32,000 nucleotides of DNA, taken from assembly GCF_000012345.1 (NCBI RefSeq), contig NC_007205.1, forward strand, positions 870,001 through 902,000, in the 5' to 3' direction. Below are positions 11,272 through 32,000 of this stretch, piece after piece. Made by a program: the position numbers and the translations under genes. This DNA comes from Candidatus Pelagibacter ubique HTCC1062 (GTDB lineage: Bacteria; Pseudomonadota; Alphaproteobacteria; Pelagibacterales; Pelagibacteraceae). How positions within the stretch are numbered: position 1 is the first letter of the stretch; each line of letters begins with the position of its first letter. The notes under the pieces are model-generated. The model did not search any database and was not told the origin of the DNA. It saw nothing but the letters and a program-made list of their open reading frames with translations.

Positions 11272-11300
11272 AAAAAGGATTTGTGATTAATCCTTTTTTT
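11272..11300 (+). terminator. AT-rich hairpin with T-run between fabZ and lpxD; the lpxD GTG start sits in its loop
   Basis: AAAAAGGATT at 11272-11281 pairs with AATCCTTTTT at 11289-11298 (10 bp, only 2 G-C pairs). The loop TGTGATT contains GTG 11283-11285, and T's continue to 11300. Confidence 0.3.
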
Positions 11301-13042: not shown

Positions 13043-13043
13043 A

Positions 13044-13829: not shown

Positions 13830-14962
13830 AAAAAATTTTTATTTTAACGGGCGAACCCTCTGGTGATAAATTAGCCTCAACAGTTATCTCTAAACTTAAA
13901 ATGAATAATCCAAATATTGAATATTTGTCAGTAGGTGGAACACATATTAAAAAATTAGGAATTAAATCTATATTTGATCTCAAAGAGATTACATATCTTG
14001 GTTTTACTAGTGTGCTGTTTAATATCTTCAAAATTAGAAAAAAAATTAACAAAACTGTTGAGGAAATTATAAAATTTAATCCTGATATCTTATTTAGTGT
14101 TGATAGTCCTGATTTCACATTAAGAGTTGCTGAAAAAGTAAAGAATATCAATCACAACATAAAGATAATTCATTATGTCGCTCCTCAGGTATGGGTTTGG
14201 AGAAAAAATAGAGTTAAAAAAATTAAAAAATTTATTGATCACATACTTTTATTATTTAATTTTGAAAAAAAATATTTTGATGAAGAAAATATTAAAAATA
14301 CTTTTGTTGGGCATCCCTTAATTGAAAAAAAAGACAATGTAATCACATCATTAGATAATTTAATTTCTAAAGATAAAAAAATTATATCCTTATTCCCAGG
14401 TAGTAGAAAATCAGAAACAAGTGTTCTTTTACCAATTTTATTAAATTTTATTAAATTGATGAACAAAAAAAAACTTGATCATTTATTTGTTTTTCATGCA
14501 ACAGACGAAAATAAAGAATTTATAATCAATAAAGTAAAAAAAACTAATTTAGATAATATAGATATAATTTCAGATGAAGATATTAAAAATCAGGTTTTAT
14601 CTAATTCAATCTTTGCAGTCTCTAAATCAGGTACAATTTCACTTCAAATTTCTAGTGCCAATATTCCTTCAATAATTATTTATAAATTAGGTTTTATAAA
14701 TTTTATGATATTTAAATTATTAGTTAATGTTAGATTCGCAAACATCATTAATATTATTAATGACAAGGAGGTGATACCTGAATTATTACAAAAAGAATGT
14801 AATGCTGAAGAGATATATAAAACTGTTACATATTTTCTTAAAAACCCAGAGTTAATTGAAAAACAATTAGTTGATTGTAAAAAAACTTTAGAGGGAATTA
14901 AGTCAAAATCTTCTTCATCAAGTGAAGCAGCTTTAATCTTAAATAATTATCTTGTTTCCTAA
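13826..14962 (+). CDS. lpxB: lipid-A-disaccharide synthase
   Basis: KIFILTGEPSGDKLAS (the GE-SGD motif) and FPGSRKSE. There is a 4-nt overlap with lpxI. Confidence 0.94.
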   Translation: MKKIFILTGEPSGDKLASTVISKLKMNNPNIEYLSVGGTHIKKLGIKSIFDLKEITYLGFTSVLFNIFKIRKKINKTVEEIIKFNPDILFSVDSPDFTLRVAEKVKNINHNIKIIHYVAPQVWVWRKNRVKKIKKFIDHILLLFNFEKKYFDEENIKNTFVGHPLIEKKDNVITSLDNLISKDKKIISLFPGSRKSETSVLLPILLNFIKLMNKKKLDHLFVFHATDENKEFIINKVKKTNLDNIDIISDEDIKNQVLSNSIFAVSKSGTISLQISSANIPSIIIYKLGFINFMIFKLLVNVRFANIINIINDKEVIPELLQKECNAEEIYKTVTYFLKNPELIEKQLVDCKKTLEGIKSKSSSSSEAALILNNYLVS

Positions 14963-18904: not shown

Positions 18905-19476
18905 TTACTTTTGTAATTAATAAAATTTTTTAATATTTTAATTCCAATGGTAGTTTTTATACTTTCAGGGTGAAATTGAACACCGTGAATATTATATTCT
19001 TTATGCATTATGCCCATTATAATTCCATCTTCAGTTTCTGCAGTAATTTCAAGATGATCAGATAACGTTTTTTTATCAACTATAAGACTGTGATACCTTG
19101 TAGCTTCAAATTTAGAGGGAAGATTTTTAAGTATACCTATTTTTTTTGATTTTATAAAACTAGTTTTCCCATGCATTAACTTTTTTGCTTGAATAATATT
19201 TGAACCAAAAACTTGACCAATAATTTGATGACCTAAACATACTCCAAGAATTGGTATTTTTCTATAAAGTGCTTTTACTATTTTAATACAATTTCCTGAT
19301 TGATTTGGATTACCTGGTCCTGGTGATATAATAATTCTGTCATATTTAATTTTTAGTATTTGTGTATGGGTGATTTTATCATTTCTAACCACATCAACTT
19401 TAACGCCTAGTGATGATACATAGTGATATAAGTTAAATGTAAAACTATCATAGTTATCTATTAATAAAATTTTCAT
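18901..19476 (-). CDS. trpG: anthranilate synthase component II (glutamine amidotransferase)
   Basis: ILLIDNYDSFTFNLYHY, GVCLGHQ (catalytic Cys) and VQFHPES (His/Glu of the triad). Confidence 0.95.
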   Translation of the reverse strand: MKILLIDNYDSFTFNLYHYVSSLGVKVDVVRNDKITHTQILKIKYDRIIISPGPGNPNQSGNCIKIVKALYRKIPILGVCLGHQIIGQVFGSNIIQAKKLMHGKTSFIKSKKIGILKNLPSKFEATRYHSLIVDKKTLSDHLEITAETEDGIIMGIMHKEYNIHGVQFHPESIKTTIGIKILKNFINYKSK

Positions 19477-20930
19477 TATTTTAATGCATTCATTAAAGCT
19501 TTGGCTTTATTAACAGTTTCTTCGTATTCTTTAATTGGATTACTGTCAGCTACTATTCCTGCACCAGCTTGGACATAAAATTTTTTATTTTTTACAACAG
19601 CAGTTCTTAATGCAATGCATGTGTCAAACTCACCATTCGCAGAAAAATAACCTATTCCTCCAGCATATACTTTTCTTTTAGTGGTTTCTAGCTCATCAAT
19701 AATTTCCATAGCTCTAATTTTAGGTGCACCAGAAACAGTCCCTGCAGGAAATCCAGCAAGTAGTGATTTAAATTTTGAAATTTTTTTATTATAAATGCCC
19801 ATCACATTAGAAACTATATGCATTACATGAGAGTATTTCTCGATCATAAAACTATCTGTAACTTTAACAGTTCCTATTTTAGAAACTTTACCAGCATCAT
19901 TTCTACCTAAGTCAAGTAGCATTAAATGTTCAGAAAGTTCTTTTTTATCTTTAAGCAAATCTTTTGCAAAAAAGCTATCCTCCTTTAAATCTTTACCCCT
20001 AGGTCTAGTTCCAGCAATTGGTCTAACAGTAATCTTGTTATCTCTTAGTCTTACTAAAATTTCTGGACTAGCACCTATAATTTGAAAATCATCAAAATTA
20101 AAAAAATACATAAATGGAGATGGGTTAGTAGTTCTAAGTTTTTTATAAATTTCTAATGGTCTTTTAGACAATTTAGCTTCAAACCTTTGACTTAAGACGA
20201 CTTGAAAAATATCTCCAATTTTTATGTATTTTTTAGCTTTGCTCACCATCTTTAAAAACTTATGCTTAGTTGTATTAGATTTAATTTTTATATTTTTCAT
20301 AATGGTTTTATTAAGATCTTTTTTTTGGAGAGAGGCTTGAATTAATAATTCATTTATTTGTTTTTCAATTTCAAGGTATCTACTCTTATAATTTGTAATT
20401 TTTTCATCCTTAAAGATATTAACAATATAAAAAATCTTTTTTTTCAAGTTATCGTGGACAACTAACACCCTTGGTCTTAAAAGCCTTACATCAGGTAGTT
20501 TTAAATCATCTCTACATTTGTTTGGAATTTTTTCTATGTATCTAATTGAATCATAAGAAAAATAACCAGAAATTAATGAACTAATAGGAGGAAGCCCTGA
20601 TGGTATCTTAAATTTAAATTCTTCAATTATCTTTTCTATAATTTTTTCAGGTTTTCCTTTAATTCTTTTTTTAGTTTTGTTTGTAACTAAATATGAATTA
20701 TTATTATTGAACTCCCAAATTTTATCAGGGTTTTTACCAAAAATAGTGTATCTACCTCTTATTTTTCCCTTTTCTACGGATTCAAAAACAAAACTATTTT
20801 TTTCTATAAGAAAATTATCTATTAGATTTAGGATTTCGTCATCATTTCTTATTTTCCTAGTGGTGTAGAGGATTTGATTTTTGTTTCTTTTATGTTGAAA
20901 CTTAAAATCATTAAAGTTTCTGTTTAACAT
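19476..20930 (-). CDS. trpE: anthranilate synthase component I
   Basis: Chorismate-binding C-terminal region: FPAGTVSGAPKIRAMEIIDELE and GGIGYFS..G.FDTCIALRT. Confidence 0.95.
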   Translation of the reverse strand: MLNRNFNDFKFQHKRNKNQILYTTRKIRNDDEILNLIDNFLIEKNSFVFESVEKGKIRGRYTIFGKNPDKIWEFNNNNSYLVTNKTKKRIKGKPEKIIEKIIEEFKFKIPSGLPPISSLISGYFSYDSIRYIEKIPNKCRDDLKLPDVRLLRPRVLVVHDNLKKKIFYIVNIFKDEKITNYKSRYLEIEKQINELLIQASLQKKDLNKTIMKNIKIKSNTTKHKFLKMVSKAKKYIKIGDIFQVVLSQRFEAKLSKRPLEIYKKLRTTNPSPFMYFFNFDDFQIIGASPEILVRLRDNKITVRPIAGTRPRGKDLKEDSFFAKDLLKDKKELSEHLMLLDLGRNDAGKVSKIGTVKVTDSFMIEKYSHVMHIVSNVMGIYNKKISKFKSLLAGFPAGTVSGAPKIRAMEIIDELETTKRKVYAGGIGYFSANGEFDTCIALRTAVVKNKKFYVQAGAGIVADSNPIKEYEETVNKAKALMNALK

Positions 20931-22351
20931 TATTTAAAATAATTTTTAACTCGCTCAAGTGTTTTTTCATTCACAACAACTTGGTATCTGTTATTTAAAA
21001 ATAAATCATATGATTTTAAAATATTATTTTTACTTTGAGCTCCCTCTTCAGAAGATATTTTTCCAAAATTAGCAGAATTTTTGTTAATGTTTTTTTCTTC
21101 GTATTTTATAGTCTTTGCAATAAACACATCATTTTCATTGTTTGCAATTAATGTAAAAGAATTAATAGGAAGAGAATAGAGTATTTGAATTGAGTTTGTC
21201 TCAAATTTTTTAGTATCATTTATAGAATCTAGCTTAATTTCTTTTATATTGTTTTTACCAAACTCATCAAATGACACTTGATTGAATGTTTTTTTATTAA
21301 TTTTTTCTAAAATATTTTTATTAAATTCCAACTTTTCTTTTTGAAATAGAAGATTTGTAATTTGTTCTTTAATTATAGGATTTTCAAGATCTGGCAATTT
21401 AGAGATTGAATTATTTATATTGTAAAAAATATAAGCACCATTATTTTCAAGAATTTCAATTTTATCTTCTCTTGAATTATAGATCATATTTTCTATTATT
21501 TTTTTATTATCAAGATTTATGTATGAGTTAACTTCGGTAGGGGAAATATCCAAATTTTTAACTATAGTTTTAAAGTCAATATTTTTTGATATTTGGTTTT
21601 CTATATCGTCAATTTTATCAAAAAATGCTTGATTAAAATCATCAATACCTAGTAAGTTTTTTGGGCTAATTTCAACAAAAGAGAAATCAATATAATCTTG
21701 TTTTAATTTTTCTGCATTTTCTTCAACGAAAAACTTAATATCGTTATCTGTAAACATTTCCTTTTTTTTATAAAAGGTACTTAGATCGATATATTCGATA
21801 TCTAATTTTTTGTTATTTTCTTTATAAAATTTATTAATTAAAAATTCTGGTGATTTTGTTCCACCACTTATGTAGGTAAATAATTGTTTTTGAAGTTCAT
21901 TATTTTTCAAGCGTATTTCAAACATGGCTGCAGAAGAATTATTTGTTAATAAAAATTTTTCATATAATGTTCTTTGAAATAATCCATTTTCATCATGGAA
22001 ATTTTTATTATTTTTAATTTTTCTAATCAATACGTCTTCTGTGATTGAAAGATTAAGTTCTTCTATTTCAAGATCAAGAAGAGTCGTGGATACTAATGTA
22101 GATAAAAGTTCTTCTATAATATTTTTATCGATATTTTCTTTAATTACCTGTTGGCTTAATCCTGATTCATTTAAATAATCCATAAAATCTTGTGTAGAAA
22201 TATTAGTATTATTTATCTTAGCTATGTTGTTTTGATTGCCAGTGCTAAATCCTCCACCAAAACCACCAAAACCAAAAGCTACTATAATTACAAAAATTAG
22301 TAGTAGACCACCAATTTTCTTTTTAGAAAAATTTTTAAAAGGATTTATCAT
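20930..22351 (-). CDS. PpiD-like periplasmic chaperone (membrane-anchored, SurA-N-terminal-like); I saw no clear parvulin domain
   Basis: An N-terminal TM helix (IGGLLLIFVIIVAFGFGGF) followed by IAKINNTNISTQDF..., typical of PpiD/SurA N-terminal domains. It sits between tpiA and trpE as in many alphaproteobacteria. Its stop overlaps the trpE start by 1 nt. Confidence 0.65.
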   Translation of the reverse strand: MINPFKNFSKKKIGGLLLIFVIIVAFGFGGFGGGFSTGNQNNIAKINNTNISTQDFMDYLNESGLSQQVIKENIDKNIIEELLSTLVSTTLLDLEIEELNLSITEDVLIRKIKNNKNFHDENGLFQRTLYEKFLLTNNSSAAMFEIRLKNNELQKQLFTYISGGTKSPEFLINKFYKENNKKLDIEYIDLSTFYKKKEMFTDNDIKFFVEENAEKLKQDYIDFSFVEISPKNLLGIDDFNQAFFDKIDDIENQISKNIDFKTIVKNLDISPTEVNSYINLDNKKIIENMIYNSREDKIEILENNGAYIFYNINNSISKLPDLENPIIKEQITNLLFQKEKLEFNKNILEKINKKTFNQVSFDEFGKNNIKEIKLDSINDTKKFETNSIQILYSLPINSFTLIANNENDVFIAKTIKYEEKNINKNSANFGKISSEEGAQSKNNILKSYDLFLNNRYQVVVNEKTLERVKNYFK

Positions 22352-22407
22352 TACTTCATTAATTTATTGATCTTTAAAATACCAAGCTATAGATTAAATT
22401 TTTCATT

Positions 22408-23148
22408 ATGACAAATAAATATATGTATTTTGTAGCTAATTGGAAAATGTATGGGAATTTATCTTCTTTAAATACATTGGATAAAGTTATTAGATTTTCA
22501 AAATCTAAAGAAATAAAGGGAGGTAGATTAATTTACTGCCCTCCAAATACTTTAATAAGTTCTTTTGCTAAAAAATTTAATAATTGTCAAATTGGTATTG
22601 GTGGACAAAATTGTCATGAAAGCAAAGATTATGGTGCTCACACTGGCCATGTTAATTCCCGTATGTTAAAAAACATTGGTGCGCATTTTGTAATTATTGG
22701 TCATTCTGAAAATAGAAAACAAGGTGAGAGTGATAAACTAATTAATCTAAAAATAAAAAGTGCTCTCGAAGCTAAATTAAAAGTTATTTTTTGTATTGGT
22801 GAAACTTTAAGTGAAAAAAGAAAAAAAAAGACACGTTCAATTTTATCTAAACAAATTAAAATTGGTCTAAAAAATATTAAAAATAAATCTAATATTTTTA
22901 TTGCTTATGAGCCTGTTTGGGCTATTGGCAGTGGCATTATACCAAAATCATATGATCTTTTTAAAACTATAGAATTTATTAAAAGTAAATTTAGAGATAA
23001 ATTGCCAAAAGTTTTATATGGAGGTTCAGTCAACCCTGAAAATATTACAAACTTAAAAAAAATTAATAATATTGATGGTTTTTTGATTGGTGGTGCATCT
23101 CAAAGTGCTAAAAAATTTATTGATATAGTCAAAAAAACGTATAGTTAA
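22408..23148 (+). CDS. tpiA: triosephosphate isomerase
   Basis: FVANWKMYG, IIGHSENR, AYEPVWAIGSG and GGASQ motifs. Confidence 0.96.
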   Translation: MTNKYMYFVANWKMYGNLSSLNTLDKVIRFSKSKEIKGGRLIYCPPNTLISSFAKKFNNCQIGIGGQNCHESKDYGAHTGHVNSRMLKNIGAHFVIIGHSENRKQGESDKLINLKIKSALEAKLKVIFCIGETLSEKRKKKTRSILSKQIKIGLKNIKNKSNIFIAYEPVWAIGSGIIPKSYDLFKTIEFIKSKFRDKLPKVLYGGSVNPENITNLKKINNIDGFLIGGASQSAKKFIDIVKKTYS

Positions 23149-23153
23149 GCCAC

Positions 23154-23453
23154 ATGGAAAATATTTTATTAGTAGTCAACTTAGTGCTAGCAACAATACT
23201 TGTACTTTTGATACTTGTACAAAAATCAGAAGGTGGTGCTCTTGGCATAGGTGTCTCTCAGGATAATTTTATGCTTTCCAGATCTGCAGGTAATTTTATG
23301 GGGAAGGCTACTGCAGTAGTTGCAACTTTATTTATAATTTGTAGCTTAGCTTTAACAATTATATCTAGAGGTGAGTTAACACCTACTGAATCAGTTTTGG
23401 ATATCATTGAAGAAAAGTCTAGTGATACACCTTCAATTCCTGAAAATAATTAA
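23154..23453 (+). CDS. secG: preprotein translocase subunit SecG
   Basis: About 100 aa with two hydrophobic helices and LLILVQKSEGGALG. It lies in the conserved position after tpiA. Confidence 0.92.
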   Translation: MENILLVVNLVLATILVLLILVQKSEGGALGIGVSQDNFMLSRSAGNFMGKATAVVATLFIICSLALTIISRGELTPTESVLDIIEEKSSDTPSIPENN

Positions 23454-23538
23454 AAAATTAAAAAAAAAGTTTAAGAAATAAATACTTTTACCTTTAAAAA
23501 CCCAAACTGGTCACTCAACCTTTATTAGAATATTTCTA

Positions 23539-25455
23539 ATGATTTATAAAGAGTTCGTGTACCAAAAAATTATAAAAATTGTATTAATCTTAAGCCTTAG
23601 CTTGTTGGCTTCGTGCGCCAATAGAGGCCCATTGCCATTTTCTTTTGATTTTTTAAAGAAATCTGCTGATGAAGATATTGAAAAAATTTCAAAAATTAGA
23701 AAGCAAAATGAAATATTACAAAAAAACTTAGACATTGATTTATATACAGCGATCGCCCTTGCAATCGAAAATAACAAAGATTTAAAAGTAAAATTATTCG
23801 AAACCGCATTAGCGGACCGTCAATTGAAAGACGTAAAGTTTGACATGTTACCAACCATGTCAGCTAATGCAGGTTATTCTGGAAGTGACAATTATCAATC
23901 ATCCACAAGTGCAACTGTTGGAAATAATGATATAGCAGCATCCAAAGGGTCTACATACTCTACATCACGAAATAGAGATGTTGTTGATCAAGATATAGGT
24001 TTTGCTTGGAACGCACTTGATTTTGGTTTGTCTTATATCAGAGCAGGGCAAACAAGCGATCGATTTTTAATTGCAAAAGAGATAGAAAAAAAATCAGCTA
24101 ACAATATTGCAAAAGAAGTTATTCGATCTTATTGGAATGCTCTTTCTGCAGATAAGTTAATTCAAAAATACGATCCTTTAATTAAAAAAGTAAAAATAGC
24201 TTTAAGCGACTCTCAAAAAATAGAAGAGATGTTGCTACAAAAACCAATGGATGCACTTTTGTATCAAAAAGAATTGCTAGATATAAAGAGAGCTCTTATT
24301 ACACAAAGACAAACTTTAATTAATTCTAAAATTGAATTAGGAACCTTAATGGGATTGTTGCCCAACCAAAGCTATAAATTAGTAGCAACCAATCAACCTA
24401 TCAATATTTTAGACATGGATTTAAAAAACATGGAAAAACATGCTTTAGTTAGTAGAGCAGAGTTATTAGAAAATCGATATCAAGAAAGAATATCCGTTGC
24501 TGAAACTAAAGTTGGATTAAGATCTTTGTTACCTAATTTTAATATTAACGCAGCTTTCACAAGTTCTTCAAATGATTATCTACAAAATAAATCAAATTTT
24601 GAATTTGGTTCTTCAGTTGGCGCAAACTTATTAAATGTCTTTAGAGCACCATCGATTAAGAAAATGAATGAGGCAAATACAGAAATTATTAAAGAACAAC
24701 GTCTTGCTTTATCTATGGCTATTTTATCACAAGTTCATTTAGCAAATATCGATTTTCAAATGAGCATGGAAGAATATGATACGGCTGAACGTTATTTAAA
24801 AGTTTCAACAAAAATTGCCGACCAAGTTCGAAACGCACAAAAAATTGCAAGATTTGGCGAATTAGAATTAATTAGAGAAGAAGCGGGTACTCTTGTTGCT
24901 GAACTAAGAAGAGACATTTCATTCTCTAAAATGCAACATTCAATTGCACAAGTTTATACCTCAGTTGGAATTGATATTACCACAAGAGACACCATAGTAG
25001 GGGGAACGGAATTATTTGCATATGAAATTAAGAATAAATTTAGTGGTTTAGGTAAAAAATACATTGCAAAAGTAACAGAACCTATTCAAAAACAAAATCC
25101 AGTTGCTAAACAATTTGATGAAAATTATAAAAAATTTGAATTTTCAGATAAAACATTCAAACTTGAAGGTCAAGGTTCTGTTCAATATTCAGCAAGATTA
25201 GCAAATGATCAACCATTACCTAGTTGGATAGATTTTTTACCAACGCAAAGAGCGTTTTTAATAGACTCGGTACTAAAAGGTGACATTCATGAAATAGAGC
25301 TCATTGTTAATGCAAAAAATATCAATTCTACAGTTGATGATCAATTTACTTTGATAGTGGATCCAATTTTAAAGAGCCAAAAAGATTTAGCAAAAATAAT
25401 AGGTACCACATTAAAAGAAAAAGCTGAAATAGTTAAAGCTTCAAAAATCCAATAA
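23539..25455 (+). CDS. outer-membrane efflux (TolC/OEP-family) lipoprotein with a C-terminal extension of about 150 aa
   Basis: Lipobox LLAS-C, with Cys26 at nt 23614-23616. An OEP-type repeat starts at LDIDLYTAIALAIENNKDLK, and a second repeat lies around LDMDLKNMEKHALVSRAELLEN. At 638 aa it is much longer than typical TolC-family proteins. Confidence 0.85.
   Translation: MIYKEFVYQKIIKIVLILSLSLLASCANRGPLPFSFDFLKKSADEDIEKISKIRKQNEILQKNLDIDLYTAIALAIENNKDLKVKLFETALADRQLKDVKFDMLPTMSANAGYSGSDNYQSSTSATVGNNDIAASKGSTYSTSRNRDVVDQDIGFAWNALDFGLSYIRAGQTSDRFLIAKEIEKKSANNIAKEVIRSYWNALSADKLIQKYDPLIKKVKIALSDSQKIEEMLLQKPMDALLYQKELLDIKRALITQRQTLINSKIELGTLMGLLPNQSYKLVATNQPINILDMDLKNMEKHALVSRAELLENRYQERISVAETKVGLRSLLPNFNINAAFTSSSNDYLQNKSNFEFGSSVGANLLNVFRAPSIKKMNEANTEIIKEQRLALSMAILSQVHLANIDFQMSMEEYDTAERYLKVSTKIADQVRNAQKIARFGELELIREEAGTLVAELRRDISFSKMQHSIAQVYTSVGIDITTRDTIVGGTELFAYEIKNKFSGLGKKYIAKVTEPIQKQNPVAKQFDENYKKFEFSDKTFKLEGQGSVQYSARLANDQPLPSWIDFLPTQRAFLIDSVLKGDIHEIELIVNAKNINSTVDDQFTLIVDPILKSQKDLAKIIGTTLKEKAEIVKASKIQ
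25135..25365 (+). other. cadherin-like (dystroglycan-type, CADG/He_PIG-like) Ig-fold domain fused to the C-terminus of the TolC-like protein
   Basis: FEFSDKTFKLEGQGSVQYSARLANDQPLPSWIDFLPTQRAFLIDSVLKGDIHEIELIVNAKNINSTVDDQFTLIVDP. The pattern Y-A-L-(N/D)-PLPSW(L/I)-F-then-GD/G-...-I-V-A-D-...-F-L-V is the classic signature of this domain family. Confidence 0.6.
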
Positions 25456-25458
25456 ATT

Positions 25459-25464
25459 AAGGAG
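25459..25464 (+). promoter_or_regulatory. Shine-Dalgarno AAGGAG for the small basic ORF
   Basis: AAGGAG lies 5 nt upstream of ATG 25470 and is the strongest SD match I noticed. Confidence 0.6.
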
Positions 25465-25469
25465 ATCTA

Positions 25470-25697
25470 ATGAAGAAAATTACAAAGAATATTAAGGTTA
25501 AAGTTGCCTCGAATAAAAAAAAAGTTTCAGGAAACATATTGAATGCACCTAAAACACATAAATTACCTCGTGTGGTTAAAGCAAGAGCAGGACAAACTAT
25601 AACAGGTAAAATTGGAGGTATTAGAAAGACACCCAATAAATCAATTGCAAAACCAGGACAAACAATAACTGGTAAAATTAGACGAAGAACCAATTGA
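25470..25697 (+). CDS. small (75 aa) highly basic protein with an internal 22-aa tandem repeat; function unknown
   Basis: It has a strong SD and Lys-rich composition like the host proteome. I recognise no hydrophobic segment or family. The motif (A/P)GQTITGKI occurs twice. Its TGA overlaps the TTG start of the giant ORF. Confidence 0.6.
   Translation: MKKITKNIKVKVASNKKKVSGNILNAPKTHKLPRVVKARAGQTITGKIGGIRKTPNKSIAKPGQTITGKIRRRTN
25588..25679 (+). repeat. 66-nt-period imperfect direct repeat inside the small ORF
   Basis: caggacaaactataacaggtaaaatt at 25588-25613 versus caggacaaacaataactggtaaaatt at 25654-25679, both encoding GQTITGKI. Confidence 0.8.
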
Positions 25698-28600
25698 CCC
25701 AAAAACCTAAAAAGAAACAGAAAATATTTATAGAAGCCCTTGAGCAGAGGATAATGCTCGACGGAGCAGGGGCCTCAACCTTTTTAGATTTAATTGATGA
25801 ACGTAATCAAGAAGATATAAAAAAAAACTCTAAAATAATCGATACCACTAAAGACAACAATGAAGTTCCTTTTGCAAACACTGCAAGAGACCAAAACAAA
25901 AAAAATGTAGTCTTTATTGATAGTGCTGTCTCTGATTATGAAACCATTATTAATTCATTTAAAGAAAACACTGAGTTTTATTTAATCAACTCCAATGAAG
26001 ATGGATTTAAAAGAATTAGTGAAATTTTAAATGATCGAAAAGATATTGATGGTTTACACATCATCGGTCACGGTAGTGCTGGACAAATTTTATTTGGTAA
26101 TGCCTTTTTAAATAACGATACCATCACTAATTACCAATCAACTTTAGCATCCATTGGTCAATCGTTAACCACAAGTGGAGATATTTTATTTTATGGTTGT
26201 AATGTAGCTTCCACTGAACAAGGTGAAATTTTAATTAAAAAAATATCAGAGATTACTAAAGCAGATATTGCAGCGTCAGATGACCTTACTGGTAAAGGTG
26301 GAGACTGGGTATTAGAAAAAAAAGAAGGTTTAATTGGTGAAGAAGAACTTAAAGTTAAAAATTACAAACATGCTCTTGGATCATTATCTTCTTCAGGTGT
26401 TCTATCTAACTCAGGTGTTACTCATATTGATAGCAATGTTACAATGATGAATTCTGGTAATGTTGGACTTGGAAGCTCAGGAGCTTTTGCAACAGTTGGT
26501 TCTGATTTTGGTTTAGCTGTAGAACAACAAAATGTTTCTGTTTCTAGTGGAGAATTAATTTCGAATCTTGATGTTGATTCAACTTATATTTTCGATGACG
26601 ATAATGATACTGGAGATGCTGCATTACAAAATGGAGCTAATCAAAATGCTTCAAGCAATATTACGGTAAATTCATATCTAATGTTTCTAGTAGAGGATAT
26701 AAACAAAAGAGCCAGTGGTTCAGCTGGAGAAGTTGTTTTTGACGGTGAAATAGTTGGAATATTTTTTGATCAAGCAAAAACTCGAGCAGCAAGTGTTGGT
26801 GGTAACACATATCATTCTGGCAATTTAATTTATGCAATGAGTGGTAGCGGAGGAAGTAGCAATTCTTCAGATAATGACGGTGGTAGAATGGCAGAGGGTA
26901 AAAAAAGTCATACTGGTATGACAAACTTCTTTAATACTACTCAATCTCATAGTTCATCTGCAGCTATTGCAAATGGTAGTAGCGGTTCTGATTGGGTTTC
27001 TGTTTCAAATCATGGAAGTGGAACAAATAATCTTTTACAATTTGGAGCGCAGAATGCGAATGTTTCCGCTGGAGATTATATAAGAATTCTCGTTGTACCA
27101 AACTCATCAGATGGTTCAGCAACTGTTGAAGAAGATGGCTCTGTATCAGTTAGCAATGGAGGAAGCGCTTCAAGTCCTGATCCAATTACAGTCGACTCAG
27201 GATCTACATTAAGTTCATCATCAGGTAGCCCAAGAAGAATGACTTTTAGCGATGATGGGACTAAATTATTTGTTCTAGAGCATACTAACGATACAATAAC
27301 TACACATAATCTTGGAACTGCTTACGATATTTCAACCCAAACTTCATCAGTAACAGGTACTACTTTAGCCTCAAACCCTCATTCCAGTTCCAGGGCTTAT
27401 GGAATAGCTTTTAGCAATGATGGAACTAAAATGTTTACATCAGATCTTGATACAGGATATGTTTATCAATCGACTTTGACTACCCCCTGGGATGTGTCCA
27501 CAAATCAAAGAAGTTCTTCAGATGATTTAAATACAGTTTCTCTTTATGGAGTAACAGCTAGTAATAGCTTATATAATAGAGACATTACATTTAGCGAGGA
27601 TGGAACCAAATTATTTATTTTAGGGTCTGATAAAACAGTTCATCAAATTAGTTTAGGAACAGCATGGGATCTATCATCTTATCAAACTCCAGATGTTGAA
27701 AAAGATCTTTCATCAATCCTAACCGACACATATGCCAACTCAATTAGCTTTAGTCCAAATGGAAAAAAAATGTTCATCAATGAATATAATAACACAATTC
27801 ATGAGTTTTCAATTGCAACTGCTTGGGATTTATCTTCAACGGTTACCAATGAAGGAAGTTTTCAATTAGGAACAGAAATAGCAAGTAATAATTTTGGAGA
27901 AGTTACTTGGAATAAAGATGGAACAAAACTTTTTGCAATAGATGATTTAGCTGAGGATATTACTGAGTATACTGTTTCAACACCATTTTCACTTGCAAAT
28001 GTGGATCAAACTAAATCTGCCGAAAGTATCTCAACTGTTTCATCAATTAGAACAGGAACAGTTGCTGCAGGAAGTGGAACATCAGGTTCAACTAATACTG
28101 CTTTAACCGGAACTTACGGTCAGTTAACTATTCAATCCAATGGTTCATATAGTTATGTTGCAAATCAAGATGCAGCGGATGCACTAGATCCAGGGGATAT
28201 TGTGTATGATTATTTTACTATTAATGGAGATACAGATTTAACAATTACCGTTATAGGTATCAATGATACACCAATCGCTGACAATGAAACTAATTCAACA
28301 GATGTTAGTACAACATTAACTGTTACAGATGGGTCTTCAGATGTTTTAGCAGGTGATACGGATGCTGATGCAGATGCATCTTTAACTGTTTCTGCAATCA
28401 GAACAGGTTCATCAGAAGGTTCAGGTGACGCAGGTACAATTGGTTCAGCTTTAAATGGAAGTTATGGTGCTTTAACAATGAACTCTGATGGTACCTATAC
28501 TTATGTTGCAAGTTCAAGCGCTGGAACTGATAGTTTTAACTACACTGTAACCGATGAATTTGGTGCAACAGATATTGCAACGTTAACTATTACTGTTAAT

Positions 28601-31600
28601 TCATCTAACGCTGCACCTACCGCATCTAATTCAACAGTATACATTAATGAAAATAACCAAGTATCTTCAGCAGGAGATAGAACACCATCTAATATTTCAA
28701 AAATATTTGCAGCCAGTGATTTTAATTATTCAGACGGTGATAGTGATAGTTTATCAAAAATAAAAATTACTACTTTAGAAAGTGCGGGTGTTTTAGAATA
28801 TTCATCTAATGGATCATCTTGGGCTGATGTAACTTTAAATCAAGAAATAACAGCGTCAGATATTAGTAATAATAAATTAAGATTTACCCCAGCTGCAAAT
28901 TCAGAAAGTAATGTAACGTTTGGTTTTAAAGTTCATGATGGTACAGATTATAGTTCATCAGCTTACACAATGACAGTATCTGTTAACGCTGCACCAAATG
29001 TTACAGATGCAACAGTTGGATCAACAGTGTCTGCTGATGGAACCAGTTCCGGTGATGTTCATGATGGTGTTGCAGATAGTGATGATGCTGATAGTGTTTT
29101 AGTAGTAACTGGTGTTGCATCAGGAAATGAAAGTTCAAATAATTCAATTGTAACCGATAATACTGGGGTTGGTTCAGCAGTATCTGGAACCTATGGTTCA
29201 TTAAATATTGCTGCAAACGGTACTTATACTTACACAGCAAGTTCAACAAATAATATCGCGTACGATGCAACTGCAACAGACATTTTTACATTTACTACAC
29301 GTGATGATGAAAGTAATTCAGGATCTAATGCCTATGACGTAGGTAGCATTACTTTTACCGTTGCAAGTTCAATTTCTTTAACAGATGACACGGATAGTGT
29401 TAATGAAGATGCAACAATTACTAAAACTGGTTCTCAAGACGATGTATTAAATGATGATGCTGCTGATACTAATGGTTTAGTAGTCACCCATATTAAAAAA
29501 GATGGTGGATCAAATTCAACAGTTGCTAGTAGTAGTACTTATACATCTAACGGAACTTCTGTTACGGGTACTTATGGTACTTTAGTAATTGGTGCGGATG
29601 GTTCTTATACTTATACAGCCGATCAAAGTGCTGCTGATGATTTAGATTTAAATGATGAAGTAACAGATGTATTTGTCTATACGGCAGATGGTGCTACAGC
29701 AAATTTAACTATTACAGTAACTGGTATCAATGATGTACCAGAAGCTGCAGATAAAACTGTAACTACAAATGAGGATACAGCTTATGTATTTTCAGCATCA
29801 GATTTTGGCTACACAGATGCAGATGACGATGATGCGTTAGTAAGTGTAAAAATTACAGGATTAGAAGATGCTGGTGCTTTACAATATAATAATGGTAGTG
29901 CTTGGGTAGATGTAACTGAAAATCAAGTGATAACAGCAACGGATATCGGTAATAATAAATTGAGATTTAACCCAGCTGCAAATGAAAATGGATCTTCTTA
30001 CACTAGTTTTGATTTTACAGTAAATGATGGCGATGCAGATAGTGCCTCAGCTAATACAATTACAGTCAATGTAACAGCAGTTAACGATGCACCTGTTGCA
30101 GATAACGAAACTAATTCAGTCAATGAAGATGCAACATTAACCGTTACCGATGGAACTTCAGATGTTTTACATGGAGACACTGATACTGAAAATGATGCAT
30201 TAACCGTTACCCAAATTGCAGTAACAGGTGCATCTGCTTCATCAGTTGCAGGAAGTAGTACTTACAATAGTAACGGAACATCAAAAACAGGTACTTATGG
30301 TACTTTAGTAATTGGTGCGGATGGTACTTATACTTATACAGCAGATCAATCAGCTGCTGATGACCTTGATGCTGGAGATACCGCAACCGATAGTTTTACT
30401 TACACGGTTTCAGATGGAACCGCAACGGATACTGCAACAATTACAATAACAGTGACAGGTATCAATGATGTACCAGAAGCTGCAGATAAAACTGTAACTA
30501 CAAATGAGGATACAGCTTATGTATTTTCAGCATCAGATTTTGGCTACACAGATGCAGATGATGATGATGCGTTAGTAAGTGTAAAAATTACAGGATTAGA
30601 ATCTGCTGGTGCTTTACAATATAACAATGGATCAGCTTGGGTAGATGTAACTGAAAATCAAGTGATAACAGCAACGGATATCGGTAATAATAAATTGAGA
30701 TTTAACCCAGCTGCAAATGAAAATGGATCTTCTTACACTAGTTTTGATTTTACAGTAAATGATGGCGATGCAGACAGTGCCTCAGCTAATACAATTACAG
30801 TCAATGTAACAGCAGTTAACGATGCACCAACTGCAAGAGGTGACACTGGTATTGTAAATGAAGATGTAACGTTAACAGTTTCTAATAGTAGTAATGCAAC
30901 AACAAGTGTTACTGCAGCTTCATTTGTTAGATCTAAATCTTTAGGGGATGCAGGATATCAAAGTCAGGAAACAAAATTTAGTCCTGATGGAACAAAAATG
31001 TTTGTGCTTGATACTTATCAAAATACAAATGAAATTCATCAATATACATTAACAACCGCCTTTGATATTTCTAGTGCTTCATTTGATGGTGCAGATGAAA
31101 CTTTTGACCTTAGTAATGAGAATTCTTCATCGAGTAATTTCACATTTAATAATGATGGAACCAAATTCTATTCAGCTTATTCGGGTAGATTATATGAATA
31201 TGACGTATCAACTGCTTATGATATTTCCACAAGTTCTTATAATAATAATTTCTTTGATTTAATACTGGAGTACCCAAATACTCGTAATATGGGTAGTGGT
31301 GTAAACGTAGCATTTAATAGCGATGGAACCAAATTATTTGCGCTAGATGCACAACAACGTGAAGTGCATGAATACTCTCTTTCAACTGCCTTTGATGTAA
31401 CTTCAGCATCTCGTACAAATAATTATGTAAGTGTTGGCACTCAAGAAGCAAGTCCATACGGTTTTGCATTTAGCAATGATGGAAAAAAAATGTTTATATC
31501 TGGATTGGGAAAGGATGTTAATGAATATACACTCTCAACTGGTTTTGACTTATCATCTACTTTTGAGTTTGTAGGTAGTTTTGATGTTTCATCTAAAGAT

Positions 31601-32000
31601 TGGTATCCACTCGGTATTACATTTAACAATGATGGTACAAAAATGTTTGTGACAGGCTCACAACAAGATAAACTTTTTGAATATTCGCTTACTACTCCTT
31701 TCAGCTTAATAGATGTATCAGGTGAACATTCAGGAGATGTCATTAACACAAGTTCAACAGATAATTATGATACAGACCCTGAGGGCGACGCACTAACGGT
31801 TACAACTTACTCTCATACATCAGCAACAGATCAAGATGGGGGTAGTATATCTTCAACAAGCAGTACTGGAACAGCTGGAACCAACAATGTTACAGGTTAT
31901 TATGGAACATTGGATTTAGAAGGTAATGGTTCTTACACTTATACTGCAGATCTAACAGTAACTCAGGCCTTAGATTCAGGAGATACTGTAACAGATATAT
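25694..32000 (+). CDS. giant repetitive surface/secreted adhesin-like protein (DUF4347 N-terminus, propeller-like cassettes, VCBS and cadherin-like repeats); 3' end lies beyond the window
   Basis: Hand translation of the frame with positions congruent to 2 mod 3 shows no stop from 25682 to 32000. The previous in-frame stop is TAG at 25679-25681. This gives at least 2102 codons. The ORF is not in the supplied track, presumably because it has no stop in the window. The N-terminus reads (M)TQKPKKKQKIFIEALEQRIMLDGAGAS. Confidence 0.9.
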   Translation, partial: MTQKPKKKQKIFIEALEQRIMLDGAGASTFLDLIDERNQEDIKKNSKIIDTTKDNNEVPFANTARDQNKKNVVFIDSAVSDYETIINSFKENTEFYLINSNEDGFKRISEILNDRKDIDGLHIIGHGSAGQILFGNAFLNNDTITNYQSTLASIGQSLTTSGDILFYGCNVASTEQGEILIKKISEITKADIAASDDLTGKGGDWVLEKKEGLIGEEELKVKNYKHALGSLSSSGVLSNSGVTHIDSNVTMMNSGNVGLGSSGAFATVGSDFGLAVEQQNVSVSSGELISNLDVDSTYIFDDDNDTGDAALQNGANQNASSNITVNSYLMFLVEDINKRASGSAGEVVFDGEIVGIFFDQAKTRAASVGGNTYHSGNLIYAMSGSGGSSNSSDNDGGRMAEGKKSHTGMTNFFNTTQSHSSSAAIANGSSGSDWVSVSNHGSGTNNLLQFGAQNANVSAGDYIRILVVPNSSDGSATVEEDGSVSVSNGGSASSPDPITVDSGSTLSSSSGSPRRMTFSDDGTKLFVLEHTNDTITTHNLGTAYDISTQTSSVTGTTLASNPHSSSRAYGIAFSNDGTKMFTSDLDTGYVYQSTLTTPWDVSTNQRSSSDDLNTVSLYGVTASNSLYNRDITFSEDGTKLFILGSDKTVHQISLGTAWDLSSYQTPDVEKDLSSILTDTYANSISFSPNGKKMFINEYNNTIHEFSIATAWDLSSTVTNEGSFQLGTEIASNNFGEVTWNKDGTKLFAIDDLAEDITEYTVSTPFSLANVDQTKSAESISTVSSIRTGTVAAGSGTSGSTNTALTGTYGQLTIQSNGSYSYVANQDAADALDPGDIVYDYFTINGDTDLTITVIGINDTPIADNETNSTDVSTTLTVTDGSSDVLAGDTDADADASLTVSAIRTGSSEGSGDAGTIGSALNGSYGALTMNSDGTYTYVASSSAGTDSFNYTVTDEFGATDIATLTITVNSSNAAPTASNSTVYINENNQVSSAGDRTPSNISKIFAASDFNYSDGDSDSLSKIKITTLESAGVLEYSSNGSSWADVTLNQEITASDISNNKLRFTPAANSESNVTFGFKVHDGTDYSSSAYTMTVSVNAAPNVTDATVGSTVSADGTSSGDVHDGVADSDDADSVLVVTGVASGNESSNNSIVTDNTGVGSAVSGTYGSLNIAANGTYTYTASSTNNIAYDATATDIFTFTTRDDESNSGSNAYDVGSITFTVASSISLTDDTDSVNEDATITKTGSQDDVLNDDAADTNGLVVTHIKKDGGSNSTVASSSTYTSNGTSVTGTYGTLVIGADGSYTYTADQSAADDLDLNDEVTDVFVYTADGATANLTITVTGINDVPEAADKTVTTNEDTAYVFSASDFGYTDADDDDALVSVKITGLEDAGALQYNNGSAWVDVTENQVITATDIGNNKLRFNPAANENGSSYTSFDFTVNDGDADSASANTITVNVTAVNDAPVADNETNSVNEDATLTVTDGTSDVLHGDTDTENDALTVTQIAVTGASASSVAGSSTYNSNGTSKTGTYGTLVIGADGTYTYTADQSAADDLDAGDTATDSFTYTVSDGTATDTATITITVTGINDVPEAADKTVTTNEDTAYVFSASDFGYTDADDDDALVSVKITGLESAGALQYNNGSAWVDVTENQVITATDIGNNKLRFNPAANENGSSYTSFDFTVNDGDADSASANTITVNVTAVNDAPTARGDTGIVNEDVTLTVSNSSNATTSVTAASFVRSKSLGDAGYQSQETKFSPDGTKMFVLDTYQNTNEIHQYTLTTAFDISSASFDGADETFDLSNENSSSSNFTFNNDGTKFYSAYSGRLYEYDVSTAYDISTSSYNNNFFDLILEYPNTRNMGSGVNVAFNSDGTKLFALDAQQREVHEYSLSTAFDVTSASRTNNYVSVGTQEASPYGFAFSNDGKKMFISGLGKDVNEYTLSTGFDLSSTFEFVGSFDVSSKDWYPLGITFNNDGTKMFVTGSQQDKLFEYSLTTPFSLIDVSGEHSGDVINTSSTDNYDTDPEGDALTVTTYSHTSATDQDGGSISSTSSTGTAGTNNVTGYYGTLDLEGNGSYTYTADLTVTQALDSGDTVTDI
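25904..26317 (+). other. DUF4347-like N-terminal domain of the giant protein
   Basis: NVVFIDSAVSDYETII...DGLHIIGHGSAGQILFGN...GDILFYGCNVAS...ADIAASDDLTGKGGDWVLE is the pattern characteristic of DUF4347. It is preceded by the LE-x-R-I-(M/L)-(L/F)-DGA motif usual at the N-terminus of such giant proteins. Confidence 0.7.
27233..28003 (+). repeat. beta-propeller-like cassette 1: five blade-like repeats of about 50 aa
   Basis: Five units fit the pattern (I/V)xFSxDGTK(L/M)F...(E/Q)(Y/F)xLxTA(W/Y)D(I/L)S(S/T): MTFSDDGTKLF..AYDISTQ, IAFSNDGTKMF..PWDVSTN, ITFSEDGTKLF..AWDLSSY, ISFSPNGKKMF..AWDLSST, VTWNKDGTKLF..TPFSLANV. Confidence 0.65.
29723..30093 (+). repeat. near-identical 371-bp direct repeat, copy 1
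   Basis: It aligns without gaps to 30458-30828 (offset 735 nt, or 245 codons) with about 9 mismatches by hand count. Confidence 0.9.
30458..30828 (+). repeat. near-identical 371-bp direct repeat, copy 2
   Basis: See copy 1. Both encode GINDVPEAADKTVTTNEDTAYVFSASDFGYTDADDDDALVSVKITGLE..AGALQYNNGSAWVDVTENQVITATDIGNNKLRFNPAANENGSSYTSFDFTVNDGDADSASANTITVNVTAVNDAP. Confidence 0.9.
30962..31717 (+). repeat. beta-propeller-like cassette 2: five blade-like repeats, homologous to cassette 1
   Basis: TKFSPDGTKMF..AFDISSA, FTFNNDGTKFY..AYDISTS, VAFNSDGTKLF..AFDVTSA, FAFSNDGKKMF..GFDLSST, ITFNNDGTKMF..TPFSLIDV. It ends with the same TPFSL motif as cassette 1. Confidence 0.65.

Follow-up and report, generated by a model that had tools for sequence, protein, structure and literature searches.

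The last 6.3 kb of the analysed window, a 32,000-nucleotide stretch of the chromosome of Candidatus Pelagibacter ubique HTCC1062, are the 5′ part of a real and very large chromosomal gene of Pelagibacter (SAR11). The product of the gene is probably a giant, acidic, nearly cysteine-free, modular protein of the cell surface, which is exported, displays β-propellers, is processed at its N terminus, and diversifies by recombination. Its extracellular character is indicated by the acidic composition, the single Cys, and the presence of VCBS, cadherin-like, and Big_9 domains. SAR11 bacteria are the most abundant heterotrophs in the ocean and have minimal genomes. Genes of this kind occupy 7–12 kb or more, up to about 1% of the genome, and there are sometimes two in tandem. 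To devote 7–12 kb or more to a single hypervariable surface protein implies that selection is strong. The named homologs are all from Pelagibacteraceae, as are nine of the ten genome loci. Complete relatives from a single-cell genome and a metagenome contig are 2,373 and 3,307 residues long, and isolate genomes contain giant ORFs of more than 3,800 residues in which no stop is reached before the locus ends. The C terminus and the downstream genes lie outside the window and are predicted from relatives with 60–99% identity.

Independent translation reproduces the uninterrupted frame reported in the preliminary description: the plus strand is free of stop codons from 25682 to 32000 (2106 codons), following a TAG at 25679–25681. 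The longest open stretches in the remaining five frames are 34–107 codons. Only two start candidates follow the stop, TTG at 25694, from which 2102 codons are counted to the window edge, and ATG at 25754. The TTG, which had been proposed before, is the only plausible start of the giant ORF, as homologs begin 12–25 codons ahead of the conserved (K)(I/L)FIE(A/P)LEQRIMLDGA and the JGI gene call uses the identical TTG (P0031). The ATG (MLDGAGAS), which is used by public callers, was rejected because conservation at the protein level extends upstream of it. A frameshift fusion of the preceding 75-residue ORF with the giant was also rejected: the homologs start within the 12–25 codons before LEQRIMLDGA, and the small ORF is separately conserved, has its own stop, and is joined to the giant in three junction styles. 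The product is rich in Ser (13.3%), Thr (12.7%), Asp (9.9%), Gly (8.6%), Ala (8.6%), and Asn (8.0%) and poor in Lys (3.0%), with 13.6% Asp and Glu versus 4.3% Lys and Arg; both this bias and the one Cys codon, at 26198 (residue 169), agree with what had been noted earlier. The gene is indeed absent from the list of ORFs that accompanied the sequence, where only short antisense ORFs follow 25.7 kb, because the listing leaves out ORFs that run off the window. However, automated calling is not blind to it, as had been claimed: Prodigal-type callers in public assemblies call the gene from the internal ATG, as a partial "DUF4347 domain-containing protein" of Pelagibacter. To describe it as the least conventional element of the window was an overstatement, given that NCBI records of close homologs already bear the name "DUF4347 domain-containing protein [Candidatus Pelagibacter]". 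As a whole, the giant protein is typical of a class that is known but unstudied, and parts of it are unexplored.

Table 1 Features of the giant gene and its upstream neighbours in the window.
Feature	Position	Strand	Basis or remark
TolC-like outer-membrane factor gene, 638 aa	23539..25455	+	Pfam OEP
75-aa ORF, very basic, two GQTITGKI motifs	25470..25697	+	positional conservation in SAR11 loci
Giant ORF, first 2102 codons	25694..32000	+	open at window edge
Basic stretch and LEPR-XLL-like motif (FIEALEQRIMLDGAGAS, aa 12-30)	25727..25783	+	NF012209
DUF4347 domain, aa 72-226	25907..26371	+	Pfam PF14252
Candidate dyad, His126 and Cys169	26069 (His126), 26198 (Cys169)	+	invariance and AF2 model
Conserved β-rich domain, aa 227-480, ends GDYIRILV	26372..27133	+	SAR11 homolog conservation
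β-propeller cassette 1, five blades	27206..28063	+	motif FSxDGTKLF ... LxTAWDxS, AF2
VCBS-type and Cadherin_3-like unit array	28064..30925	+	family searches
Recent internal duplication	29695..30729	+	copies 29695-29994 and 30430-30729
β-propeller cassette 2, five blades	30926..31798	+	32% identical to cassette 1
Further VCBS unit, start only, cut by window end	31799..32000	+	core GYYGTL aa 2068

The giant gene comes third among the cistrons of a tight unit, after genes for a TolC-like lipoprotein and a basic protein of 75 residues (Table 1). The TolC-like protein matches the Pfam family OEP in two stretches (90.6 bits), is sub-threshold for the NCBIfam TolC model, and has a lipoprotein-type N terminus (LSLLASC) with one N-terminal hydrophobic segment. 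Its C-terminal extension of about 180 residues (184 residues searched) has no Pfam match; kinship of this extension with the Ig-like domains of the C-terminal module of the giants was rejected, since the 21-residue match (E 0.008) is insufficient. The ORF of 75 residues begins 14 nt after the TolC-like gene, with AAGGAG upstream of its ATG, and ends in the sequence TTGA, in which its TGA stop and the TTG that starts the giant overlap. Small ORFs are found at the same position in L005 and L009 (87 residues, with TAA followed directly by ATG), in L006 (51 residues, again with the TTGA overlap), and in L008 and L011–L014. The ORF of 75 residues is called by public gene callers and has 19 relatives, all from SAR11; it has no match among the searched families, including PHROGs. 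Database versions of the small ORF that are 87 residues long (…RRRTNWPKN…) are a genetic-code artefact in which TGA is read as Trp. A scan of the region 23.1–26.0 kb detected no terminators, and fewer promoter-like sites than in shuffled sequences.

The domain order given in the preliminary description, which runs from the N-terminal motif through DUF4347, an unassigned region, a propeller, VCBS and cadherin units, and a second propeller to further VCBS units, is reproduced by family searches and blade motifs. Residues 12–30 score 15.5 bits against a cut-off of 17 with the NCBIfam model NF012209 (LEPR-8K), and the segment from M21 to A27 is nearly invariant among 45 homologs. The DUF4347 domain is recognized by Pfam with 168.6 bits against a cut-off of 24.6. 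Its residues H122, H126, G127, D163, C169, D191, and D197 are invariant in the 45 homologs. In the AF2 model that covers the domain (pLDDT 64 overall, 70–87 in the domain), β and α elements alternate, and H126 and C169, which are 43 residues apart, end the strands 118–127 and 158–169, respectively. The top 30 or so Foldseek matches of the model in the PDB are nearly all caspases, with probabilities of 0.9–0.99 and E values of 2e-3 to 2e-2. Sub-threshold matches to Peptidase_C80 cover the DUF4347 region in 26 of the 45 homologs (best E 0.0017); among ten homologs scanned singly, the seven that match have scores of 13.8–16.6 bits against a cut-off of 23.8. The protein from the window itself has no Peptidase_C80 match, an hhalign comparison of the DUF4347 family profile with an approximate caspase-3 sequence was negative (probability 0.3), and sequence and profile searches of the PDB (phmmer and hmmsearch) gave no match for DUF4347. 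Together, these weak but consistent signals make DUF4347 look like a putative clan-CD His-Cys domain, akin to caspases and peptidase C80. As in the C80 domains of MARTX and large clostridial toxins and in caspases, the predicted fold is α/β, with the His and Cys at the ends of adjacent parallel strands. C80 domains cut after a Leu just N-terminal to themselves. The likeness to C80 includes a host protein that is giant and secreted and a conserved Leu-containing motif just upstream of DUF4347; the score, however, is below the Pfam threshold, and the protease activity is putative.

The domain that follows DUF4347 has neither a Pfam nor a PHROG match. Its AF2 model consists mostly of strands (pLDDT about 60–88), and Foldseek returned no convincing match for it. 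A PHROGs search of the N-terminal module as a whole gave no match, and residues 227–509 match no family, in agreement with the roughly 300 unassigned residues that had been described after DUF4347.

The two five-bladed cassettes noted previously are borne out by blade motifs at residues 518, 573, 633, 686, and 739 of cassette 1, where the blades are about 53 residues long, and at residues 1762, 1818, 1874, 1926, and 1977 of cassette 2. The AF2 model of cassette 1 (pLDDT 80, pTM 0.82) contains 20 strands arranged as five times four, and these radial four-stranded blades identify the predicted fold as a β-propeller. Foldseek aligns the model with propellers at a probability of 1.00; the TM score is only 0.46 with seven-bladed lactonase and WD40 propellers in the PDB and 0.70, at 2.1–2.3 Å, with viral models. 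An assignment to PD40 had been suggested; the match of cassette 1 is borderline (21.5 bits against a cut-off of 20.9, two short stretches only), that of cassette 2 reaches 10.5 bits, and a five-bladed propeller of an unmodelled family fits better. The identities PD40, WD40, and SGL were not adopted, as the Pfam matches are borderline or sub-threshold. A sequence search of the PDB with the cassette retrieved only paraoxonase fragments (E about 0.05). Although Pfam lacks a model for the cassette, it is matched by about 8,500 cluster representatives, among them proteins encoded at the tail-fibre position of phage genomes. In most complete relatives of the giant, the number of blades is a multiple of five (0, 5, 10, 15, or 20); in the tandem giant L001a, the motif matches only three blades.

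The phage proteins related to the cassette include gp51 of Lentibacter phage vB_LenP_ICBM2, proteins of Roseobacter phages CRP-2, CRP-9, CRP-13, and CRP-738, and those of the uncultured contigs L095 and L096. They share the blade repeat of about 52 residues with the giant at 25–33% identity (E down to 8e-23), and it is to their predicted fold that the cassette model corresponds (TM 0.70, 2–3 Å). The phage proteins are stand-alone, often have ten blades, and in each case precede a gene for a tail assembly chaperone; the genes of the ten-bladed homologs in the phage contigs and in ICBM2 lie directly upstream of it. By contrast, in SAR11 the propellers are five-bladed units embedded in a giant cellular protein. 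The confident model, the occurrence of blades in fives, and the homologs at the tail-fibre position suggest that the propeller is a binding module. The module is generic, because similar cassettes occur in many unrelated giants, some of which have C termini of the Bacteroidota T9SS type.

Between the cassettes, the array contains VCBS-type cores at residues 806, 922, 1165, 1292, and 1533 and Cadherin_3-like units at residues 1005, 1366, and 1611. The giant protein is matched by Pfam Cadherin_4 (165 bits in seven stretches), Big_9, Cadherin_3, and Cadherin_5 and by NCBIfam TIGR01965 for VCBS (148 bits in six stretches) and the tandem-95 model, and a profile search of the PDB with the array retrieved 6xi1 and 9y9w. 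The copies of the internal duplication are 94% identical over 300 nt, lie 735 nt apart, and differ in one residue over about 120 at the protein level. Domain orders vary among relatives behind a conserved N-terminal module. Because of these varying orders, the duplication, and the divergence of L047, which matches the window at 97% from 28683 to 30184 and not beyond, the middle of the giant protein is, as judged from sequence comparison, a mosaic.

In related loci (read in L001, L002, L047, L074, and L084), the genes downstream of one or two giants encode a 238-residue periplasmic HlyD-like adaptor, a 443-residue membrane-anchored HlyD-like adaptor (both HlyD_3), and a 700-residue polytopic fusion of Peptidase_M50 and an HlyD-like HlyD_D23 domain; convergent unrelated genes lie beyond these. 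Among the 50 metagenomic loci that extend far enough upstream, scored by eye because an automated motif was too strict, 46 have a long ORF that carries a conserved tail and terminates about 2.1 kb ahead of the M50 gene. The operons of the five related loci encode no ABC ATPase or other energiser, and the three downstream proteins contain no Walker A motifs. Therefore, the secretion route as modelled here is incomplete; a gene for an ABC protein may lie in another part of the genome. The C-terminal RTX signal that had been expected is replaced in complete relatives by a conserved non-RTX module with the tail F-x-x-L-x-D-Q-L ... D-x-Y-G-x-x-I-I. GGxGxD repeats are absent from the part of the giant in the window and from L001a, L001b, L002, L047, and L084, and L074 has a single isolated match, attributable to chance. 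Because the operon lacks an ABC ATPase and complete relatives lack RTX repeats, the giant would work in the manner of a type-1-secreted adhesin, not as an RTX adhesin. A literature search found nothing on giant proteins of SAR11, LEPR-XLL, or a secretion operon with M50 and HlyD components.

By analogy with type 1 secretion, the giant may cross the envelope unfolded through a conduit formed by the TolC-like protein and the adaptors, and the conserved C-terminal module with its tail is probably the secretion signal. After export, the protein would extend as a chain of Ca-binding Ig-like VCBS and cadherin units, with the N-terminal module remaining close to the cell. The chain would display the five-bladed cassettes as putative ligand-binding modules, probably for glycans. 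The caspase- and C80-like DUF4347 domain probably cleaves the giant in cis, plausibly at the invariant LEQRIML-DGA motif upstream of it, and such cleavage would mature or release the protein. Recombination among the repeats may reshuffle the variable middle.

It is scarcely credible that the ORF is a pseudogene or an assembly artefact made of collapsed or chimeric repeats that stay in frame by chance. The gene does contain nearly identical repeats of 300 nt, and public assemblies break or become chimeric here, as in the first 1.3 kb of L047. However, at the local base composition a run of 2102 codons without a stop has a probability of about 6.5e-73, all segments have in-frame matches to protein families, and complete or very long relatives occur in other genomes. 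The independent assemblies L012 and L013 are colinear with the window at 19445–29473 (98.7%) and 19808–28624 (96.5%), respectively, which clears at least the first ~1260 codons of misassembly; of the misassembly concern raised earlier there remains the last 2.5 kb, for which L047 provides partial independent support. A canonical biofilm adhesin of the RTX or LapA type, secreted by an ABC-MFP-TolC type 1 system, with an N-terminal plug for retention and a LapG-type protease for release, is very unlikely. The fibre-like arrays of Ig-like extenders with inserted ligand-binding domains in LapA of Pseudomonas, MpIBP of Marinomonas, and SiiE of Salmonella resemble the giant, as does the linkage to TolC-like and HlyD-like genes. 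However, five of the six related giants are free of the GGxGxD nonapeptides, the operon has no ABC transporter and has a fusion of peptidase M50 with an adaptor where an ordinary inner-membrane component would be expected, the N-terminal module consists of the LEPR-XLL-like motif and DUF4347 instead of the LapA retention module, and the score with the BapA/LapF family NF045619 is 104.9 bits against a cut-off of 180.

The C80-like signals in DUF4347 with its invariant His and Cys, the giant size, and the TolC-linked export would also suit a MARTX-like polyprotein, from which a C80-like domain frees effector or toxin modules after delivery. That the giant is such a toxin is highly improbable, because no enzyme or effector domains were detected in its body, which consists only of Ig-like units and propellers, the putative protease is at the extreme N terminus and not between effectors, and SAR11 is not known to have a host. 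SAR11 cells are free-living, planktonic, and unattached; hence, "adhesin" may be the wrong biological role. This lifestyle favours the reading of the giant as a hypervariable coat or decoy, in which propellers like those of phage tail fibres bind the glycans of the cell itself or incoming phages, and so mask receptors. Diversifying selection by pelagiphages would account for the mosaicism, the propeller repeat is common to tail-fibre-position proteins of marine phages, and extreme variability follows an identical TolC-like gene. The cassettes of unrelated giants, including those with T9SS-type C termini, speak against such a role, and we regard it as unlikely. A further proposal, which is speculative and rather doubtful, is that SAR11 exports the giants by an undescribed TolC-dependent route without a dedicated ABC ATPase, with the M50-adaptor fusion and the two adaptors as the inner-membrane core and the LEPR-XLL-type motif cut by M50 or DUF4347, and that the propellers serve a phage–host arms race and not attachment.

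The exported, propeller-displaying surface protein favoured here belongs with the DUF4347/LEPR-XLL giants of NCBI PGAP annotation (PF14252, NF012209, and TIGR01965), with which it shares the LEPR-XLL-like motif, DUF4347, and VCBS and cadherin arrays. It differs from them in its LEQRIML variant of the motif, just under the NF012209 cut-off, and in the interspersed propeller cassettes. DUF4347 is mentioned in just three papers and is called uncharacterized in the single one where it is discussed, and the giants that carry it form a widespread, experimentally untouched class. Culturable strains that carry the locus make three leads testable: the likely His-Cys protease fold predicted for DUF4347, the unmodelled propeller module in common with tail-fibre-position proteins of phages, and the operon with adaptors and an M50 protease and without an ABC ATPase. 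The giant gene also accounts for the repeated breaking of SAR11 metagenome assemblies at this point: the exact OEP sequence is present on 73 contig blocks, and every block examined ends within the giant.

The giant ORF is a real gene, and the preliminary description made from the sequence alone described it correctly. Independent translation of the + strand from 25682 to 32000, downstream of the TAG stop at 25679–25681, gives 2106 codons with no in-frame stop, as had been claimed. The longest open run in the other frames across this stretch is 107 codons, and the probability that 2102 codons lack a stop by chance at the local base composition is approximately 6.5e-73. The composition computed from the translation agrees with that noted by eye: the product is rich in Ser, Thr, Asp, Gly, Ala and Asn, contains 3.0% Lys, and has one Cys, encoded at 26198. 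The G+C content rises from 0.21–0.33 in the flank to 0.34–0.375 in the giant ORF, which fits a product rich in Gly, Ala, Thr and Asp. The ORF track lists only short antisense ORFs here; however, the listing tool by design leaves out ORFs that run off the source, and the "missing ORF" therefore reflects how the track is made, not the gene itself. The claim that automated ATG-to-stop ORF calling would miss the gene entirely was incorrect, because public callers do call it, from an ATG.

The only start candidates between the TAG stop and the conserved motif are TTG 25694 and ATG 25754. Annotated homologs have N-termini 12–25 residues ahead of the near-invariant (K)(I/L)FIE(A/P)LEQRIMLDGA, and one JGI call uses exactly TTG 25694. 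By contrast, the ATG start (MLDGAGAS...) chosen by the public callers removes residues conserved among homologs, and is rejected. Therefore, TTG 25694, the start proposed initially, is right.

Family searches and blade motifs reproduced every element of the proposed domain architecture. The conserved domain that follows DUF4347 has neither a family nor a fold match in profile and structure searches. The giant ORF belongs to a class that is already named in databases. All its named homologs belong to Pelagibacter; of the ten genome loci with homologs, nine are from Pelagibacteraceae, the isolates HIMB1493 and HIMB1748 among them.

Features of the giant gene, its neighbours and its relatives (positions are in the window unless a public locus, L-number, is named; aa numbers count from TTG 25694)
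Feature	Location	Description
Syntenic SAR11 core housekeeping genes	1–23453	dnaE, rpsB, tsf, frr, uppS, cdsA, dxr, bamA, skp, fabZ; gltX, lexA, trpCDGE, SurA-like gene, tpiA, secG (list leaves out four ORFs at 11283–14962); G+C down to 0.21
TolC-like outer-membrane factor	23539–25455	638 aa; lipoprotein-type N-terminus
Small ORF	25470–25697	75 aa, very basic; two GQTITGKI motifs; AAGGAG ahead of ORF
Basic stretch and LEPR-XLL-like motif	aa 1–30	NF012209, 15.5 bits against a cut-off of 17
DUF4347	aa 72–226	168.6 bits
Conserved, mostly beta domain	aa 227–480	ends GDYIRILV
Propeller cassette 1	aa 505–790	five ~53-aa blades
Propeller cassette 2	aa 1745–2035	five ~53-aa blades
Six VCBS-type and three Cadherin_3-like units	between and after cassettes	
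ICBM2 gp51	L097 3276–4487	403 aa, same blade repeat
Tandem giants	L001 1118–9883 and 10001–19924	3,307 aa; the giant ahead of it has at least 2,921 aa
L084 giant		2,373 aa
L074 giant		at least 2,500 aa
L002 giant		at least 2,557 aa
HIMB1493 and HIMB1748 giants		more than 3,800 aa
Downstream gene 1		238-aa HlyD-like protein, signal-like N-terminus
Downstream gene 2		443-aa HlyD-like protein, ~175-aa cytoplasmic N-terminal domain, one TM segment
Downstream gene 3		700-aa fusion of polytopic HExxH peptidase-M50 domain and HlyD-like domain
Downstream genes 1–3 together	L074 7644–11787; L084 7458–11623; L002 8763–11873; L047 6122–10265	followed by convergent unrelated genes

The content past the window edge was inferred from relatives of the giant ORF. 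They share a conserved C-terminal module of ~370 aa, with a linker rich in Lys and Glu and two weak He_PIG/RibLong-like Ig domains, and end in the tail KF(V/I)xLxDQLxKE...(D/E)(D/E/N)YGxx(I/L)I(N/R/S)xL. In some SAR11 genomes there are two tandem giant genes (L001 and L007 4438–4623), ~120 nt apart, the second of which lacks a small ORF ahead of it. Searching through the M50 gene retrieved 80 metagenomic loci, 50 of them with at least 2.6 kb of upstream sequence. In 46 of these 50, a long ORF that has the conserved tail ends ~2.1 kb 5' of the M50 gene. Therefore, the linkage of giant, two adaptors and M50/adaptor fusion is conserved, down to ~60% identity. Intramembrane metalloproteases that process RiPP leaders show weak similarity to the M50 part (daptide_HExxH, 131 bits; cut-off 300).

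Gene order and domains suggest that the giant leaves the cell through a TolC/adaptor conduit. It may then be displayed as a long Ca-binding fibre bearing binding modules. Processing of its N-terminal motif might fall to DUF4347, acting in cis, or to the M50 protease of the operon. RTX adhesins have the same working mode, and a search for any C-terminal RTX/T1SS signal had been proposed. However, RTX adhesins are defined by RTX repeats and an operon-encoded ABC transporter. The related giants scanned contain no RTX repeats, save one isolated match in L074, and the downstream trio of genes includes no ATPase, the Walker A motif being absent from all three proteins. The giant is therefore not filed among the RTX adhesins. 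Export could be energised by an ABC protein encoded elsewhere, or by something new.

DUF4347 is termed uncharacterised in the literature searched, and sequence searches of the PDB returned nothing for it. All 45 aligned homologs share H122, H126-G127, C169 and a number of Asp residues; C169 is the sole Cys in the 2,102 residues of the giant ORF, and likewise in the 2,373-aa L084 relative. The predicted structure alternates beta-strands and alpha-helices, with H126 ending the strand 118–127 and C169 ending the strand 158–169, and a hairpin and a helix separate the two strands. We take this arrangement to be the layout of a caspase-type dyad. The best Foldseek matches of the model are almost all caspase-3, caspase-8 and CED-3 (probability 0.9–0.99, but E only 2e-3 to 2e-2), and 26 of the 45 homologs have sub-threshold colinear matches to Pfam Peptidase_C80 over the His-Cys region. 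Alignment of the family profile with caspase-3 by hhalign was negative; this and the PDB searches speak against such a relationship. On balance, a clan-CD-like His-Cys peptidase fold is somewhat favoured for DUF4347. C80 domains cleave after a Leu just upstream of themselves; by analogy, DUF4347 might cut the LEQRIML-DGA motif that lies upstream of it in the same chain, a tentative proposal that is rather doubtful.

In the family-profile check, DUF4347, VCBS and cadherin-like domains were found as expected, whereas PD40 on the cassette is barely above its cut-off (21.5 against 20.9 bits), and SGL and WD40 are sub-threshold. An AlphaFold model of the cassette from 51 sequences is confident (pLDDT 80, pTM 0.82), and its 20 strands form five sets of four. 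Its closest solved structures, seven-bladed lactonase and WD40 propellers, reach a TM-score of only ~0.46, whereas predicted viral proteins reach 0.70 (2.1–2.3 Å). The nearest sequence relatives outside SAR11 are stand-alone proteins of ~540 aa with ten such blades. The two looked up (L095 8001–9617 and L096 8001–9623) are on phage contigs, immediately 5' of a tail-assembly-chaperone gene, and in the cultured Lentibacter phage ICBM2 (L097) the homolog is flanked on both sides by such genes. All three are annotated only as hypothetical, and phages of Roseobacter, Maribacter and Synechococcus have further homologs. The position before the tail-assembly-chaperone gene implies that the phage proteins are tail fibres or receptor-binding proteins.

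In an exhaustive HMMER scan, the cassette matched 8,491 cluster representatives with E<=1e-3; 1,022 of these had E<=1e-30. The best matches (P0260–P0408) are giant, otherwise unrelated proteins of 2,000–6,246 aa, each with as many as 32 matched stretches. Several of them have a Bacteroidota T9SS-type sorting domain at the C-terminus, and none of the top 149 representatives has a LEPR/DUF4347-type N-terminus. Blade counts in complete SAR11 relatives are mostly multiples of five (0, 5, 10, 15, 20); the tandem giant L001a has only 3 by motif. The cassette is thus a discrete, widespread and uncurated five-bladed module, which phages have in receptor-binding positions and which giant cell-surface proteins also carry. 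The natural reading is a putative role in binding, probably of glycans.

The small ORF begins 14 nt past the TolC-like gene, and its TGA overlaps the TTG of the giant (TTGA). It has no family match; relatives retain its position and GQTITGKI-like motifs, with a varying number of motif units in versions of 45–95 aa. Their junctions with the giant are of three types: TTGA overlap, TAA-ATG abutment, and a shortened one-motif version. The small ORF is regarded as a real SAR11-restricted gene, translationally coupled to the giant. Many public calls of it have 87–94 aa (P0242, P0244, P0249) because TGA was read as Trp (…RRRTNWPKNLKRNRKYL), an artefact of calling genes with genetic code 4 on SAR11 contigs of low G+C. 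The ~180-aa C-terminal extension of the TolC-like lipoprotein (24900–25455) has no Pfam match. Its 'PLPSWIDF' was compared with the 'LPEWIK' that opens the C-terminal Ig-like domains of the giants, and the similarity is too weak for a call (E 0.008 over 21 aa). The locus offers four leads: DUF4347 as a putatively C80/caspase-like domain, the propeller shared with phages, the adaptor/M50 operon without an ABC gene, and the small basic ORF coupled to the giant.

Misassembly of repeats had been named as an alternative explanation of the long frame. The window sequence is confirmed independently to 29473, and the last 2.5 kb have partial independent support. This end includes a 300-nt direct repeat, 94% identical and 735 nt apart (29695–29994 and 30430–30729), which encodes two almost identical Cadherin_3-like units; a change in copy number or a collapse of the assembly is likely at this site. 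The exact TolC-like protein is present on 73 contig blocks, and each of the four such loci examined ends inside the giant gene. L047 is 97% identical to window positions 28683–30184, beyond which its repeats form a different series, and relatives with 60–80% identity in the N-terminal module differ in domain order after it. The giant gene is therefore a recombination-shuffled, assembly-breaking hotspot.

At positions 1–1370 of L047, the giant ORF does not continue and the translation is Cys/His-rich nonsense; this segment resembles a chimeric join made during assembly within the repeats.
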